Shown here piece by piece: positions 1,452-62,495 of a stretch of 64,000 nt of DNA (position 1 is the first letter of the stretch; every line of letters begins with the position of its first letter). The notes beneath the pieces are model-generated. The model ran no database searches, had not been told where the DNA came from, and saw only the letters and a program-made list of their open reading frames with translations. The translations under genes and the position numbers were made by a program. Source of the stretch: Escherichia coli (GTDB taxonomy: Bacteria; Pseudomonadota; Gammaproteobacteria; Enterobacterales; Enterobacteriaceae). The stretch is taken from the NCBI RefSeq assembly GCF_051903065.1, contig NZ_CP178438.1; one strand, 5' to 3'.

Positions 1452-1527
1452 TCCTCTGTAGTTCAGTCGGTAGAACGGCGGACTGTTAATCCGTATGTCA
1501 CTGGTTCGAGTCCAGTCAGAGGAGCCA
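1452..1527 (+). tRNA. asnU: tRNA-Asn (anticodon GTT)
   Basis: 76-nt sequence TCCTCTGTAGTTCAGTCGGTAGAACGGCGGACTGTTAATCCG...GGAGCCA matches the E. coli tRNA-Asn cloverleaf with GTT in the anticodon loop. Which asn locus name applies is inferred from neighbours. Confidence 0.93.
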
Positions 1528-3860: not shown

Positions 3861-3936
3861 TCCTCTGTAGTTCAGTCGGTAGAACGGCGGACTGTTAATC
3901 CGTATGTCACTGGTTCGAGTCCAGTCAGAGGAGCCA
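3861..3936 (+). tRNA. asnV: tRNA-Asn (anticodon GTT)
   Basis: Identical 76-nt tRNA-Asn sequence to the copy at 1452-1527. Confidence 0.93.
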
Positions 3937-16411: not shown

Positions 16412-16449
16412 GCAAAAAATAACCGACGCTGATGAAACGTCGGTTTTTA
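16412..16449 (-). terminator. Candidate terminator downstream of yeeY
   Basis: Stem AACCGACG...CGTCGGTT with T-runs on both sides. Confidence 0.5.
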
Positions 16450-16531
16450 GTCATTTTTTGACAGCGGCGCATTGTGCCTAAATGGGGGGGAAATGACAAG
16501 AGAATGAGAGGCTTGTCATAATAATTTTTCT

Positions 16532-18435: not shown

Positions 18436-18535
18436 GCCTGATGCGCTCCGCTTATCAGTCCTACAAAAACTTCAATATATTGAATTTACGCAACATTTGT
18501 AGACCAGATAAGGCATTCACGCCGCATCCGGCAGG
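18436..18535. repeat. REP/BIME palindromic units
   Basis: GCCTGATGCGCTCCGCTTATCAGTCCTACA ... TGTAGACCAGATAAGGCATTCACGCCGCATCCGGCAGG; same family as the REPs inside the colanic acid operon. Confidence 0.65.
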
Positions 18536-18757: not shown

Positions 18758-18808
18758 ATGACACGCGTTCAATTTAAACACCACCATCATCACCATCATC
18801 CTGACTAG
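18758..18808 (+). CDS. hisL: his operon leader peptide
   Basis: ATG ACA CGC GTT CAA TTT AAA CAC CAC CAT CAT CAC CAT CAT CCT GAC TAG = MTRVQFKHHHHHHHPD with seven consecutive His codons. Confidence 0.92.
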   Translation: MTRVQFKHHHHHHHPD

Positions 18809-18869
18809 TCTTTCAGGCGATGTGTGCTGGAAGACATTCAGATCTTCCAGTGGTGCATGAACGCATGAG

Positions 18870-18908
18870 AAAGCCCCCGGAAGATCACCTTCCGGGGGCT
18901 TTTTTATT
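18870..18908 (+). terminator. his attenuator terminator hairpin
   Basis: AGCCCCCGGAAGATCACCTTCCGGGGGCTTTTTTATT between hisL and hisG. Confidence 0.88.
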
Positions 18909-26001: not shown

Positions 26002-26070
26002 GGATGCGATGTTGTTGTCGCATCCGGCAAAAAAAACGGGCAAGGTGTCACCACCCTGCCCGTTTTCTTT
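26002..26070. terminator. Bidirectional terminator between hisI and wzzB (two adjacent hairpins)
   Basis: GGATGCGATGTTGTTGTCGCATCC followed by AAAAAAAACGGGCAAGG...CCCTGCCCGTTTTCTTT, with A/T runs on both sides. Confidence 0.75.
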
Positions 26071-36854: not shown

Positions 36855-36895
36855 TAAATAACGCTACCGCCCCTGGCTTTACAGCTACCAGAGCA
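36855..36895 (-). promoter_or_regulatory. JUMPstart element with ops (RfaH-dependent antitermination) upstream of the O-antigen operon
   Basis: Plus-strand AACGCTACCGCC is the reverse complement of GGCGGTAGCGTT (ops core GGCGGTAG); surrounding CCCCTGGCTTTACAGCTACCA also occurs upstream of wza. Confidence 0.7.
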
Positions 36896-40850: not shown

Positions 40851-42071
40851 CTATAAAGCCTGCAGCAAGCTGGCGAGTTCTCGATTAATCACCTGCTGGT
40901 TAAAATCGTGTTCGACTTTTTCGCGCGCACGTTTGACAACCGGAGCCAGTTCGTCGGTGTCCAGTTGGCTAAACGCAGCCAGTCGTTGCGCCAGTGCGCG
41001 AGCATCGTTCTCAGGCACCAGCCAGCCGGATTTATCGGCCTCCACCAGTTCAGGAATTCCGCTATGCAGAGTTGAAACCACCGGAATACCGACCGCCATC
41101 GCTTCCATTAGCGCCACCGGAATACCTTCCATATCGCCATCCGCGCCCGTTACCGATGGCAACAGGAAGACATCCGCGTCGTCGAGCATCGCTTTCACTT
41201 CGTGGCTCGGTTTAAAGCCCGGCATCTCCACCACATCTTCCAGTTGATATTGTTCGATGAGGGTGCGCAGGCGTCGTTCCCACGGGCCAATGCCGAGGAT
41301 GCGATAGCGAAATGCCACGCCCTGCTCTTTCAACTGACGGCAGGCTTCGATCGCCACATGCAGGCCTTTTTTCTCGGTTAAGCGTGCGACGGAAATGATT
41401 TCCAGCGGCGTTGCAGGCGCTTTCACCGGACGCGGGCTAAAGCGCGTCATGTCCACGCCCATGCGCGATACGGCGATTTTTTCCCTCGGGCAGCCCATTT
41501 TTTGCAGCCTTCCGGCCCACAAATCGCTTATCGGTAACATCAGGTCGCCACGGCGGAACAGTTGTTGATATTCGGGAGTGTAGTGGTTGAGCACTTCCCG
41601 ACTGGAGATATCAATACCGTGGAAGATGGTGGCAATTTTGCCGCGAATGACACCCAGTTCGCGTAGTTTTGCTGCGGTTACCCCCGCAGGGCCAAAATGA
41701 GCGATAAAGACATCAGCATGAAATGGTGTTGCGACCTGACCGCAAATGGCAGACAAAATCAGGTTCCGCGACTCGGCACCATAGCGTTTGAGGTTGAACG
41801 CCTGCCAGGTATTTTTACGATGAATGCCACGTAACGTCTGGCTGGCGCGGTGGCGCAGTTTCGCCACTTTGCCCGTAGGTTCGTCCTGTAACCAGCGGGT
41901 TCTGGCGGCAAGGTTGTATTTCGTCCATGCCGCGTGGGTGTTCTGGGTGTCGCCTTTTTGCAGCGCGACAATCTCCACCTCAAAGCCCATATCAATAAAC
42001 GCGGTAATTTGATTGAGGACGAAGGTTTCCGACGACAACGGAAATTTCAGTAAAAAGAAGCCGACCTTCAT
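40851..42071 (-). CDS. wcaL: Colanic acid glycosyltransferase (GT4)
   Basis: 406 aa. Confidence 0.9.
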
Positions 42072-43348
42072 TTCACCTCCCCGATGCGTTCAAGCACAGA
42101 TTGCACCATCTGCATTCCTGTATAACGCTCACGACTGACAGCTTCATTAAGTCGTGCGTTCAGCGCCGGAAGTTGACCTAAGGTATCCGCAACCATCGCT
42201 TGCAGGCTACCGTCCAGTAAATGACGGATATCAATTGCCATCTCTGGCAGCCCCAGCTGCTGCATGATCCCGGCGGATTTATGTTCATAGTTGATGGCAA
42301 TCGCCGGAGTAGCAAAGTTCATTGAGATAATGGCTGAGTGCAGGCGCGTACCGACGGTGAGTTCACAGGCACCGAGAATTTTGCCCATTTCCAGATCGTT
42401 GAGTTCATCCATCACTACGTGGTAACGGGCAGGATCGCTGATGTGCTGGCGAAGATTGAGCGCCACCATGCGGTCGTCTTTGTTATAGCTGTCGATGCCC
42501 GTACAGGTGGAGAGCGCAATCACCTGATAGCCTTCGTCGAGAATGCGATTGACCACCCCGGCAAAGGCTTTTTCATACGCTTGTTGAGTGGTGCCGAGAC
42601 GTTTGTCGAACGGTGCCAGTTCGCGCAGGGTAATGGCCACCGTTTTCTGTTGTGCGGCAACGTCCAGCCAGTGTTGAACGGCATAGCTGGCAGTGAAGTC
42701 TTCGGTGTGGTGATCGACCAGCCACGCGGTATCGACGCCATGTTCCACTTTTGCGGTAGTGATATTGCTGCGTTTCATCAGATCAAGACTGACCGATTCG
42801 CGCAGGATCAGCGCGTCACAGTGACCAAAAACGTAGTTCGCCAGTTGGTTAAATTGCTCATCCTGGAAGGGACCGACGCTGTGACCAATCATAAACAGCG
42901 GCTTTTTCGCCATAAACGTGCAAAGCGCATGTTCAAACTGCGGCACGCCGTAGAGATCGACAAAAAACGATCCGCCGACCTGAATAATGGCGTCGTAACC
43001 TGACAGCAGGCGCACGAAGTCGGTGAATCCCTGGGCGATGGCGATATTACGCAGCTTGCCAGTGTCGGTGACGCGTGAGAGCAGTACCTGATGCTGGTAG
43101 CGGCGACGGAGGACTTTTTTAACGCGCCCGACAACGCCCGCCGCGCTGTTGTGTTGTTTCATTTGCAGGAACAGCGGATCGCCCATTACCGGGCGGTTGA
43201 GCAGCCAGGAAGAACTGACCGGATAGCGGCTCATCACGTCCACTTCGGCATGTGGATTGAGGATGTTGATGGCATCAAGTAAGCCGCGCAAGATGGCGCT
43301 GTCGCCACGATTGCCGCAAGTGTGGTTGCCCAGAATAAGTAATTTCAT
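42068..43348 (-). CDS. wcaK: Colanic acid pyruvyl transferase
   Basis: 426 aa, MKLLILGNHTCGNRGDSAIL... Confidence 0.9.
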   Translation of the reverse strand: MKLLILGNHTCGNRGDSAILRGLLDAINILNPHAEVDVMSRYPVSSSWLLNRPVMGDPLFLQMKQHNSAAGVVGRVKKVLRRRYQHQVLLSRVTDTGKLRNIAIAQGFTDFVRLLSGYDAIIQVGGSFFVDLYGVPQFEHALCTFMAKKPLFMIGHSVGPFQDEQFNQLANYVFGHCDALILRESVSLDLMKRSNITTAKVEHGVDTAWLVDHHTEDFTASYAVQHWLDVAAQQKTVAITLRELAPFDKRLGTTQQAYEKAFAGVVNRILDEGYQVIALSTCTGIDSYNKDDRMVALNLRQHISDPARYHVVMDELNDLEMGKILGACELTVGTRLHSAIISMNFATPAIAINYEHKSAGIMQQLGLPEMAIDIRHLLDGSLQAMVADTLGQLPALNARLNEAVSRERYTGMQMVQSVLERIGEVK

Positions 43349-43409
43349 TTTTTCCTCATAAATTTGATGCCAGGTGAGGCTGTGTTTGTTGTGTTCGTTG
43401 CCGTTTTTT

Positions 43410-43597
43410 GCCTGATGCGACGCTGGCGCGTCTTATCAGGCCTACAAGACCCGAGCACAGAACCGTAGGCCGGATAAGGCGTTCACGCCGCATCCGGCAT
43501 TCAGTGCCTGATGCGACGCTGACGCGTCTTATCAGGCCTACAGGTCCCGAGCACAGAACCGTAGGATGGATAAGGCGTTTTACGCTGCACCCGGCAA
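43410..43597. repeat. REP/BIME cluster (about 4 units) between wcaK and wzxC
   Basis: Repeated GCCTGATGCGACGCTGGCGCGTCTTATCAGGCCTACA... / ...GGATAAGGCGTTCACGCCGCATCCGGCA units. Confidence 0.8.
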
Positions 43598-43623
43598 CCG
43601 TTGTCGGAGCCTAAAACAACCAT

Positions 43624-45102
43624 TCACCCCGCCCGTAAAAGCATTTTCATTTTTTCGCTGCGACAAAACTGACGCTTCACTTCCACCACCAGCGGATGGC
43701 GCGACAGCACAATCATCACCACAAACGCCAGCACGCCCGCGGCTATTTGCACCGCCAGCAGCATCCCCAGCGCCAGTTGCCCTTTCAGCACAATGCCCAG
43801 CACATAACTGACCACCAGCGTCGGCAGCGAGAGATAAAACGGCAGCCACAAACTCAGGATGTACTGGCGATAACTGGAACCGAGCACCGGTTTAATCATC
43901 ACGAAATAGCTCAGAATGGTGTTGATAATCTGCACCAGCAGGAAGCCAAGCGTGACGCCGATTGCGCCAGCCATCTGCCCACCAATAACAATCGCCGGAA
44001 TAAACAGAAATGTTTTGAATACGTTGAATTTAAAGCTGATATCGACCCGCGCTTTCGCCATCAGCAGCGAACCAATCGGGTTACCCACTGAGCGCAGTAG
44101 CCCCACCACACACAGCAATTGCAGCACCGGAATAATGCTGTTCCACTTTTCGCCAAATACCAGCGGTACAAAGTTATTCGACACCACCATTAGCCCCAGC
44201 AGCGCCGGAAAGTTAATAATCCCCACCACCGAAAGCAGCTTGTAGAAGTTAATGCGCAGCTTTTCGGTATCGTCCTGAATTTTGGCAAACGCCGGAAACA
44301 ACACCCGGGTGATGATCGGGTTCAGCTTCATCGGCGGTACAACGGCCACGTTGTACGCCAGGTTGTATCCCCCTGCCACGCCCGCGCCGAGAATACGCGC
44401 CAGCACCAGCGTTGAAAGGTTGGTGTTGAGATAGTTGATGATGCTGTCCGCCGTCAGCCAGGCACCAAAGCGTAAGTTCGGTGCCACCGACGCCAGCGAG
44501 AAATGCAGACCGGGGCGATAAATTTTGCGGCCAAAGTAGCCAAACAGCAGCGTTCTCACCGCACTATTGACCAGATAACCGAGGATCGCGGTCATCGCCA
44601 GCGGCCAGAAATGGGCGCTAACCACCGTAAAAGTGAAGCCCGCCAGTACCGCGCTGGTTTCGATCATGCCGATTTTGTTGAACTCCAGCTCCTTTTGCAT
44701 CAACGCGCGGAACTGCTGCCCGTGGGGGATCACCACAAACGCCAGCGACAATGTTTTAATCAACGGTGCCAGGTCCGGGTTGTTCAGCACGTCACCAATG
44801 AGATCACTCAACAAAAACACCGCCACGCACACCACAAGCCCCAGCCCAACGTTCAGCCAGTACAGCGTGGTGAGTTCAAGGTGGCTGATTTCTTTTCGCT
44901 GAATAATCGAGTTAGCAATACCGAAGTCAGAAAGCGTATCTGCCAGCGCGATGATCACCAGCGACACGGTAAGCAAACCGAACTGGTGGTTGTCGATGAT
45001 CCGCGCCAGCACGGTCATCTGCACCAGCCCGAGACCGATGATGATCACCGTGGCAATCGCCGACCACTTCGCGCCGCTGATGGTTTTTTCACGTAAGCTC
45101 AT
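43624..45102 (-). CDS. wzxC: Colanic acid repeat-unit flippase
   Basis: 492-aa polytopic MOP-family protein. Confidence 0.9.
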   Translation of the reverse strand: MSLREKTISGAKWSAIATVIIIGLGLVQMTVLARIIDNHQFGLLTVSLVIIALADTLSDFGIANSIIQRKEISHLELTTLYWLNVGLGLVVCVAVFLLSDLIGDVLNNPDLAPLIKTLSLAFVVIPHGQQFRALMQKELEFNKIGMIETSAVLAGFTFTVVSAHFWPLAMTAILGYLVNSAVRTLLFGYFGRKIYRPGLHFSLASVAPNLRFGAWLTADSIINYLNTNLSTLVLARILGAGVAGGYNLAYNVAVVPPMKLNPIITRVLFPAFAKIQDDTEKLRINFYKLLSVVGIINFPALLGLMVVSNNFVPLVFGEKWNSIIPVLQLLCVVGLLRSVGNPIGSLLMAKARVDISFKFNVFKTFLFIPAIVIGGQMAGAIGVTLGFLLVQIINTILSYFVMIKPVLGSSYRQYILSLWLPFYLSLPTLVVSYVLGIVLKGQLALGMLLAVQIAAGVLAFVVMIVLSRHPLVVEVKRQFCRSEKMKMLLRAG

Positions 45103-47923: not shown

Positions 47924-48012
47924 GTCGTTACCCTTTTTCAGGCAATAGTTGGCCCTGACCGAAGCGGCCAATTTTGTTTTTGTCGTTATTTACACCGCGG
48001 TTTCGCATTCAT

Positions 48013-48115
<103 letters not shown>

Positions 48116-58465: not shown

Positions 58466-58520
58466 GCCGGATGCGGCGTGAACGCCTTATCCGGCCTACG
58501 GGGCGGTGCGAATGCAGGCG
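58466..58520. repeat. REP element between wzc and wcaA
   Basis: GCCGGATGCGGCGTGAACGCCTTATCCGGCCTACG. Confidence 0.7.
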
Positions 58521-62439: not shown

Positions 62440-62495
62440 TTTCAGGCATCCAGACACGCTACCGCCCCTGGCTTTTTAGCTACCAATACACTGAT
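62440..62495 (-). promoter_or_regulatory. JUMPstart/ops element in the wza 5' leader
   Basis: Plus-strand CACGCTACCGCCCCTGGCTTTTTAGCTACCA; reverse complement contains GGCGGTAGCGTG; about 180 nt upstream of wza. Confidence 0.75.

Follow-up and report, generated by a model that had tools for sequence, protein, structure and literature searches.

BIME-2 repeats in the colanic-acid operon of Escherichia coli: strain variation in the wzxC/wcaK spacer and a possible role in the operon transcript

REP elements inside operons

The REPs of the three spacers considered here, along with their indels among strains, were already listed by Iguchi et al. 2011 (PMC3158064), who reported indels of four and two units at wcaK-wzxC and cpsG-cpsB and a conserved unit at wcaA-wzc. 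In a few cases, the REP indels coincided with recombination junctions, and the candidate functions considered were mRNA stabilisation, transcription control, gyrase and IHF. These REPs flanking the O-antigen locus are the same elements as those analysed here, that is, ordinary, already described E. coli REP/BIME repeats. However, the earlier study covered a handful of O157 strains and did not class the units as Y, Z1 or Z2, nor the elements as BIME-1 or BIME-2. New in relation to that work are the unit classing, a range of 0 to 12 units at one of the sites, an alternative repeat allele and a cross-species view.

BIME-2 elements are built from inversely oriented z2 and y units, separated by short linkers and present in multiple tandem copies whose number varies among strains, whereas BIME-1 elements are single-copy pairs of z1 and y joined by a long L linker, in which an IHF site is often present (Ton-Hoang et al. 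2012). The closest parallel to the array described below is REP325 of K-12, which comprises 12 alternating Z2/Y units between yjdM and yjdN, co-directional genes of one operon, and is the source of naRNA1-6. REP325 protects the upstream yjdM mRNA and lowers downstream yjdN expression ~8-10-fold, partly via Rho; no role of REP325 or naRNA4 in nucleoid compaction was detectable (Harris et al. 2026). In the same study, canonical REPs in tandem gene pairs were associated genome-wide with higher upstream/downstream ratios, with wide scatter, the effects of REPs were strongly context-dependent, and REPs did not generally lengthen mRNA half-lives (Harris et al. 2026).

The array between wzxC and wcaK resembles REP325 in the alternation of Z2 and Y units, the short linkers, the tandem arrangement, the location between co-directional genes of one operon and the match to the same Rfam model, and some E. 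coli alleles of this spacer also reach 12 units. It differs in containing four units, one of them decayed, in having a 96-bp module instead of the 77-nt repeat plus U spacer of REP325, and in belonging to a JUMPstart/RfaH-type operon. The intercistronic REPs of malE-malF and hisJ-hisQ are described as classic mRNA stabilisers (Newbury 1987; Stern 1988). They, too, are within-operon REP hairpins downstream of the protected gene, but they belong to other operons and were tested experimentally. For colanic-acid and group 1 capsule operons, a stem-loop attenuator that is overcome by RfaH has been reported immediately after wzc, and expression downstream of wzc is reported to be RfaH-dependent. The Y-type REP of the wzc/wcaA spacer occupies the same position, directly after wzc, and because it is the sole strong hairpin of that spacer, it is probably the reported attenuator.

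Organisation and class of the repeats

We analysed a 64,000-nt stretch of E. coli DNA (hereafter, the window) that contains the his operon, an O-antigen cluster and the colanic-acid (cps/wca) operon, with a his leader at 18784-18907 (Rfam match) and two JUMPstart elements on the minus strand, at 36860 and 62455 (Rfam). The JUMPstart before wza implies that the operon is read by RfaH-modified polymerase. The cps operon is encoded on the minus strand, and in its direction of transcription the array spacer follows wzxC and precedes wcaK. Megablast searches retrieved a 100% identical stretch from strain ECNB21-M121 and near-identical stretches annotated as wcaK and wzxC from thousands of E. coli genomes. 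The REP-bearing spacers, of 275, 192 and 92 nt, are the three longest gaps in the operon, all other junctions being 54 nt or shorter or overlapping. Every REP unit is extragenic, lying in a spacer between annotated genes; the sole ORF that overlaps the array, a mechanical 68-aa ORF with a TTG start, is spurious.

The wzxC/wcaK spacer (43349-43623, 275 nt; bounds from ORFs and the K-12 annotation) holds four units in strict alternation, Z2>, Y<, Z2> and a degenerate Y< (Table 1). The two modules of this array form a direct repeat with a 96-bp period (43409-43483 compared with 43505-43579, 93% identity), and the nearest unit lies 26 nt from the wzxC stop codon. The cpsB/cpsG spacer (192 nt) contains Z2>, Y< and a half Z2>, and the wzc/wcaA spacer a single Y. 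The initial annotation had placed REP/BIME elements at these junctions, with about four units between wcaK and wzxC; its bounds for this array, 43410-43597, are exact, and the flanking genes agree with RefSeq annotation. At wcaA/wzc, for which 58466-58520 had been given, the unit is present but ends at 58499, about 20 nt earlier.

Table 1. Features of the REP-bearing spacers, their flanking genes and the repeat pair upstream of hisL (positions in the window)
Feature	Position	Strand	Evidence and remarks
BIME-1-type element upstream of hisL	18436..18532	.	Z1-type unit, linker and Y unit; both units decayed
Z1-type unit, 29 nt, upstream of hisL	18436-18464	+	Matches a Z1 consensus; folds weakly
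Y unit upstream of hisL	18499-18532	-	Folds weakly
wcaK, pyruvyl transferase, downstream of the array in operon sense	42068..43348	-	426-aa ORF; RefSeq annotation, in K-12 and in identical or near-identical genomes
Complete BIME-2 array of two 96-bp Z2-Y modules in tandem	43409..43600	.	Direct repeat and spacer bounds
Z2-type REP unit 1 (GCCTGATGCGACGC...GGCCTAC)	43410..43445	+	Hairpin -21.9 kcal/mol on operon-sense RNA, z -4.7
19-nt tail-to-tail linker (AAGACCCGAGCACAGAACC)	43446..43464	.	Read from sequence; inside the 96-bp repeat; second copy at 43542-43560
Y-type REP unit 2	43465..43498	-	Hairpin -21.3 kcal/mol; first half of the Rfam naRNA4 match
7-nt head-to-head linker	43499-43505	.	Read from sequence
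Z2-type REP unit 3	43506..43541	+	Hairpin -22.8 kcal/mol; covers the second half of the match to Rfam naRNA4
Degenerate Y-type REP unit 4	43561..43597	-	Weak stem, -9.4 kcal/mol, z +0.7
wzxC, flippase, upstream of the array	43624..45102	-	492-aa ORF; RefSeq annotation, in K-12 and in matching genomes
algC RNA motif, cpsB/cpsG spacer, just upstream of cpsG	47928..47977	-	Rfam RF02929, 77.3 bits; kept across species
Z2-type REP unit, cpsB/cpsG spacer	48014..48049	+	Hairpin -21.9 kcal/mol
Y-type REP unit, cpsB/cpsG spacer	48061..48094	-	Hairpin -21.1 kcal/mol
Half Z2, 13 nt (GCCTGATGCGACG), 1 nt from the cpsB stop	48102..48114	+	Direct repeat of 48014-48026
Single Y-type REP unit, 92-nt wzc/wcaA spacer	58466..58499	+	Same sequence in K-12; sole strong hairpin of the spacer
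JUMPstart upstream of wza	62455..62493	-	Rfam RF01707, 57.3 bits

With its Y and Z2 units in alternating orientation, the wzxC/wcaK array is near certainly a BIME-2 element; equally near certain is the assignment of the cpsB/cpsG repeats to a second, shorter BIME-2 and of the wzc/wcaA repeat to a lone Y unit. All the BIME-2 features examined by sequence (alternation, tandem copies and strain-variable number) were found at the first two sites. The linkers of the array are short, 19 nt and 7 nt, with no long L linker. At none of the three operon sites did we detect the BIME-1 hallmarks, namely a Z1 unit, a long linker or an IHF consensus.

REPs, or palindromic units, are defined as extragenic imperfect palindromes 30-40 nt long whose stem is interrupted by a mismatch or bulge. 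Membership in this family is apparent from several properties of the operon units, which are imperfect palindromes of 34-36 nt. The foot tetranucleotide CTAC occurs at 43442-43445, 43538-43541, 48046-48049 and 58496-58499, and its counterpart GTAG at 43465-43468, 43561-43564 and 48061-48064. Units were scanned by Hamming distance and local alignment, and those of long alleles were counted by iterative local alignment; the full-length Y and Z2 consensus strings were derived from the units of the window itself, which makes their zero-mismatch scores circular. When at most two mismatches were allowed, the 13-mer core matched the window 20 times, compared with 6.9 +/- 2.6 matches in shuffled sequences, none of 100 of which reached 20, and all seven exact matches lie at the three operon sites and the hisL pair. 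The REP class is supported independently by the Rfam naRNA4 model (RF02564; the Y-Z2 pair of REP325), which matched 43468-43538 on the plus strand (79.7 bits, E=1.6e-12), by the published identification, and by genome-wide copy number: of 5,426 E. coli genomes, 5,425 carry matches to a 501-nt query, at a median of at least 38 places each.

In the operon-sense RNA, all but one of the seven operon units form imperfect palindromic hairpins with energies of -21 to -23 kcal/mol (z-scores between -3.9 and -5.1), sharing the structure (((((((..(((((....)))))..))))))). A failure of the repeats to fold in this manner had been proposed as the observation that would overturn their identification; it applies solely to the decayed fourth unit of the wzxC/wcaK array. 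The fold of the whole 275-nt spacer reaches -124.8 kcal/mol, compared with -87.7 +/- 4.9 for shuffles (z -7.6). Between 43200 and 43800, no intrinsic terminator (hairpin plus U-tract) was found on either strand, the last hairpin on the operon-sense strand being followed by AAAAAACGG and not by a run of U, and no sigma-70-like promoter was found on either strand. Given that neither a promoter nor an intrinsic terminator was found in it, the spacer appears to be read through from upstream.

The pair upstream of hisL has a different composition. It fits BIME-1 in outline, its 34-nt linker carries a one-mismatch IHF consensus at 18473-18485, and its units fold weakly (-6.7 and -9.2 kcal/mol). Assignment of the operon repeats to the same family as the hisL pair, as made in the initial annotation, holds at the level of the REP superfamily but not at that of the class, with BIME-1 upstream of hisL and tandem BIME-2 arrays or a lone Y in the operon. 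The suggestion that the operon repeats bind IHF is at odds with the sequence of their spacers: no match to the IHF consensus WATCAANNNNTTR with up to one mismatch was found in any of the three, and IHF goes with the BIME-1 linker.

The cpsB/cpsG spacer also contains an algC RNA motif, which was absent from the initial annotation. Foldable REP units lie 21-26 nt from stop codons, and the non-folding half Z2 alone abuts the cpsB stop. In 2015, Liang, Rudd and Deutscher reportedly described REPs within ~15 nt of stop codons as translation stallers; at the distances of the foldable units, this ~15-nt rule is probably not satisfied, and we rejected translation stalling as an explanation.

Variation among E. 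coli strains and across Enterobacteriaceae

Comparison of unit counts with K-12 gave four units in both genomes at wzxC/wcaK, the same unit at wzc/wcaA, and ~2.4 units at cpsB/cpsG compared with a 13-nt half unit in K-12. The wzxC/wcaK spacer is 275 nt long in both genomes, and the fourth unit is less decayed in K-12: in the alignment, the window copy has three substitutions more, and its score as a fraction of the maximum is 0.56, compared with 0.78 for K-12. The cpsB/cpsG spacer of K-12 is 104 nt long, compared with 192 nt in the window, the difference being an 88-bp indel bounded by the direct repeat GCCTGATGCGACG. In a sliding comparison, divergence from K-12 amounted to 2.5-4% in each segment of the operon, without a step at any REP site. 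The idea that the repeats mark segment boundaries within the operon is therefore unsupported; moreover, the cpsB/cpsG site lies between two genes that belong to one GDP-mannose pathway.

Variation in E. coli was surveyed with flank-only queries, reading 60 rows spaced evenly through the ranked list of 4,641 matching genomes, that is, a systematic sample and not a full count; the flank match was absent in 785 genomes. In this sample, the wzxC/wcaK array spanned 0 to 12 units, its length changing in increments of 96 bp. Four units were the most frequent state (17 of 60 rows), followed by two (12) and none (9); six units were found in five rows, plus one allele 12 bp short, eight in four, ten in three and twelve in four, and the remaining rows comprised three alleles of different sequence, one internally deleted allele and one partial match. 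In the example alleles, which span all sizes from 2 to 12 units, the alternation of Z2 and Y is strict; an O157:H7 example carries two units and an ST131 example ten. The empty allele has a 71-nt spacer and is 204 bp shorter than the filled one, the missing segment lying between 8-nt imperfect direct repeats. The main spans at cpsB/cpsG differ in 88-bp steps: the window-like span of ~516 bp was found in 35 rows of the 60-row sample for that site and the K-12-like span of 425/428 bp in 16, with spans of 604 bp in four, 690/692 bp in two and 452 bp in two, and one further row partial.

The different-sequence allele of the wzxC/wcaK spacer, present in BL21, in APEC O1:K1:H7 and in ~5% of genomes, is a 161-nt spacer without REPs that contains the GC-rich palindrome CCCCTCGCCCCCTGGGGAGAGGGTTAGGGTGAGGGGG. 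This palindrome is itself a dispersed repeat, found at a median of 16 places per genome; by its size and copy number, it is a candidate member of the BoxC family listed for E. coli in PMC2267715. With ~15% of the sampled E. coli lacking any unit at this site and ~5% carrying a different repeat, the array is dispensable. Rather than a conserved component of the operon, it is an insertion specific to certain lineages and variable in copy number.

Across species, a search with a degenerate WcaK N-terminal pattern yielded 120 loci from species-representative genomes, 111 of which have wzxC directly upstream. In these 111 Enterobacteriaceae species, the median wzxC-wcaK spacer is 30 nt; 74 species have spacers of at most 40 nt, 16 of 41-99 nt and 21 of 100 nt or more. 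Long spacers contain REP-like units in Escherichia and Citrobacter, GC-rich CCCTCTCCC...GGGAGAGGG palindromes in Enterobacter, Lelliottia, Pluralibacter, Pseudenterobacter, Buttiauxella and Kosakonia, and other sequences in a few cases, such as Mangrovibacter; Salmonella arizonae has a 62-nt spacer with a REP-like unit. The spacer is ancestrally short and has been filled repeatedly, lineage by lineage, by unrelated palindromic repeats. The cpsB-cpsG spacer has a median length of 109 nt in the 30 species whose locus extended that far, and typically consists of a species-specific REP-like hairpin just after cpsB and a conserved algC RNA motif before cpsG.

Possible functions of the array

The explanation that we favour, with a probability of about 0.6 for the whole, combines the BIME-2 identity of the repeats with a role at the RNA level. 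The mechanism itself, in which the array would serve as an mRNA stabiliser and partial attenuator, has in our estimate slightly better than even odds. From the observed sequence class, folding potential, position and polymorphism of the array, we infer a series of events that would begin with its co-transcription, on the minus strand, within the long cps mRNA. The transcript would form four hairpins or a long Y:Z2 duplex, which would block 3'-to-5' exonucleases and protect the message from wza to wzxC, and would in addition partially attenuate transcription into wcaK-wcaL-wcaM, in a manner dependent on Rho or on pausing. The upstream-to-downstream expression ratio would then rise, scaling with unit number. 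The initial annotation had suggested that the repeats act as mRNA stabilisers or partial terminators; by the precedent of REP325, this is the best-supported role, but the array is not an intrinsic terminator, and because a U-tract terminator is absent, any attenuation would depend on Rho or pausing. RfaH excludes NusG and Rho. Considering this property together with the JUMPstart upstream of wza and the requirement for RfaH downstream of wzc, RfaH-modified polymerase would be expected to override much of the attenuation, so that the net effect would be modest and conditional. The case for the mechanism is weakened by the dispensability of the array, by the short spacers (at most 40 nt) of 74 of the 111 species, by the ongoing decay of unit 4, by the context dependence of REP effects stressed in the REP325 study and by the possible cancellation of attenuation by RfaH.

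The same observations give substantial weight to a neutral or selfish origin, under which REP/BIME elements in a permissive spacer would expand and contract by slippage, inter-repeat recombination or the activity of RAYT (TnpA-REP), with no selected function; we regard this as the less probable account, although one that has to be taken seriously given that the array is missing from ~15% of E. coli and most relatives and that its fourth unit is decaying. The presence/absence polymorphism and the variation from 0 to 12 units in clean 96-bp steps are as expected for such a passenger, as are the cpsB/cpsG indel bounded by a 13-nt direct repeat, the 204-bp difference between the empty and the filled allele, flanked by imperfect 8-nt repeats, the decayed fourth unit and a spacer that in most species is ~30 nt long and empty. 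Copy-number variation among strains is, furthermore, general for BIME-2, and in vitro work connects it with TnpA-REP recombination (Ton-Hoang et al. 2012). However, 21 of the 111 species have an expanded spacer, mostly with REP-like or GC-rich palindromes of unrelated families, and the spacer has two alternative occupants in E. coli, which together suggest more than one accident, a pattern that an insertion hot spot would explain as well; moreover, the comparable REP325 array measurably affects its neighbour genes. An array without a selected function would be compatible with a side effect on expression. A third account, in which crossovers next to the O-antigen locus occur preferentially at the REP sites, which would delimit the exchanged segments and mark recombination junctions, appears improbable. 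REP-containing indels do occur at similarity junctions, including wcaK-wzxC in one strain pair, but in just a few cases (Iguchi 2011, PMC3158064), and while the K-12-like and window-like cpsB/cpsG alleles differ in flank identity (~93% and 97-98%, respectively), divergence from K-12 stays at 2.5-4% throughout, with no step at the three sites.

Functions at the DNA level have also been considered. Binding and cleavage by gyrase independent of transcription, removing supercoils around the 21-kb operon, is an unlikely explanation of the array, although binding of gyrase there is a possible role that would not exclude one in the RNA. In Topo-Seq data, cleavage sites are over-represented in BIME-2, with a preference for Y units, two of which are present in the array, and increase when transcription is blocked, but just a subset of BIME-2 elements is cleaved. 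The proposal of the initial annotation that the repeats bind gyrase is thus documented for a subset of the class, with no locus-specific record by gene name: wcaK, wzxC, cpsG and cpsB do not appear in the Topo-Seq supplementary files searched, a weak argument given that sites may be listed by coordinate. In addition, unit 4 of the array, one of its two Y units, is degenerate, and array-free strains exist. Far less probable is an IHF-binding element of the RIP/RIB type. Such elements share the REP superfamily with the operon repeats, and IHF binds the L linker of BIME-1, a linker of this kind with a one-mismatch site being present upstream of hisL; however, the operon sites are BIME-2 or a lone Y, with linkers of 5-19 nt and no consensus match, and lack Z1. 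A small-RNA gene resembling naRNA4, whose Y-Z2 transcript would bind HU and condense the chromosome, is about as improbable, and we rejected this reading. The plus-strand match of 79.7 bits at 43468-43538 does exceed the gathering score of 59.5, but it is antisense to the operon, and the operon-sense match, at 55.4 bits, falls below that score; no promoter-like site was found on either strand, practically every Y-Z2 pair would be picked up by the model, and a role of REP325 or naRNA4 in the nucleoid was not borne out when re-examined in 2026.

REP/BIME elements are textbook repeats of E. coli, and the finding is by itself of little consequence. It is only mildly new, in the range of 0 to 12 units, in the existence of an alternative repeat at that position and in the recurrent filling of the spacer across Enterobacteriaceae. 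For annotation, it means that repeat DNA accounts for the 275-nt gap in the operon and that the naRNA4 call is a generic REP match and not a gene; for assembly and typing, differences in multiples of 96 bp or 88 bp at these sites represent genuine polymorphism. A more speculative possibility, which we consider quite unlikely, is that the wzxC/wcaK spacer acts as a natural expression dial, the number of modules setting how much transcript reaches wcaK-wcaL-wcaM. If so, the extent to which the colanic-acid repeat unit is pyruvylated or completed would be tuned strain by strain, and the filling of the spacer in a fifth of the 111 species would reflect selection for a hairpin barrier, beyond a permissive landing site. 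The range of 0 to 12 units at one intra-operon site offers a natural series for the proposal that REP arrays tune the ratio of upstream to downstream expression.

Alternative alleles of two REP-bearing spacers

The wzxC/wcaK spacer, which in the window harbors the four-unit BIME array, exists in E. coli in filled and empty forms. The filled and empty alleles differ by 204 bp, and an 8-nt imperfect direct repeat, CGTTGCCG / CGTTGTCG, lies at the edges of this segment; it may mark either the site where the array first inserted or a deletion that occurred afterward. REP is absent from this site in about 5% of E. coli genomes, APEC O1:K1:H7 and BL21 among them, in which the spacer is 161 nt long and carries a GC-rich palindrome, CCCCTCGCCCCCTGGGGAGAGGGTTAGGGTGAGGGGG. 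This palindrome is a dispersed repeat, found at a median of 16 sites in each genome. The size and copy number of this repeat fit BoxC, making it a candidate member of that family.

At cpsB/cpsG, the window and K-12 alleles differ by 88 bp; because the direct repeat GCCTGATGCGACG lies at the bounds of this difference, the comparison points to deletion or expansion through repeat recombination. All that remains in K-12 and in about one-fourth of the sampled genomes is the 13-nt half REP beside the cpsB stop codon. The flanks of the K-12-like alleles are the more diverged, with about 93% identity vs 97-98%. The same spacer contains an algC RNA motif, located between the REPs on one side and the cpsG start codon on the other; across 30 Enterobacteriaceae species, most cpsB-cpsG spacers conserve its core, GGTCAGGGCCAACTGTTGCCTGAAAAAGGG. 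The REP interval delineated here in the initial annotation covers the repeat units and ends before this motif, leaving it out.

Coordinates of features in the window and in the compared loci
Feature	Location	Strand	Remarks
Two tRNA genes	window 1452-1524 and 3861-3933	+	Rfam, equal scores
STnc240 sRNA family	window 16412-16486	-	Rfam
Filled wzxC/wcaK allele	window 43396-43617		counterpart of empty allele, L003 212-231
68-aa TTG ORF	window 43408-43614	+	mechanical prediction; wholly within BIME array
algC RNA motif	window 47928-47977	-	Rfam RF02929, 77 bits
K-12 cpsB/cpsG spacer segment	L001 8058-8084		compared with window 48014-48114
REP-less wzxC/wcaK spacer	L005 161-321 and L006 161-321		APEC O1:K1:H7 and BL21
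wzxC-wcaK spacers of other genera	L082, L086, L073, L032, L054, L063, L128, L068		

The wzxC-wcaK spacer in other genera

Across 111 species, the median length of the wzxC-wcaK spacer is only 30 nt. Expanded spacers of 120-270 nt are found in Pseudenterobacter, Enterobacter, Buttiauxella, Pluralibacter, Lelliottia and others, where one to four GC-rich CCCTCTCCC...GGGAGAGGG palindromes account for the length; in Citrobacter and Salmonella arizonae, the spacer is occupied by REP-like units.

Other features of the window and annotation within the array

The hisI/wzzB spacer (26003-26070) contains a short hairpin, GGATGCGATGTTGTTGTCGCATCCGGCA, that resembles the remnant of a REP. After it comes a GC-rich hairpin with A and T runs on its two sides, which has the appearance of a bidirectional terminator. 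Iguchi 2011 (PMC3158064) lists hisI-wzz among the REP sites of other strains. STnc240 and the two tRNA genes, all located toward the left end of the window, are unrelated to the REP/BIME finding.

The TTG ORF in the BIME array is a repeat artefact and should not be annotated. The Rfam model naRNA4, built on the Y-Z2 pair of REP325, matches positions 43468-43538 antisense to the operon with 79.7 bits, above the gathering score, and on the operon-sense strand with 55.4 bits, below it. This model behaves as a generic detector of Y-Z2 REP pairs, and therefore naRNA4 entries in annotated E. coli genomes probably represent repeat matches rather than sRNA genes.
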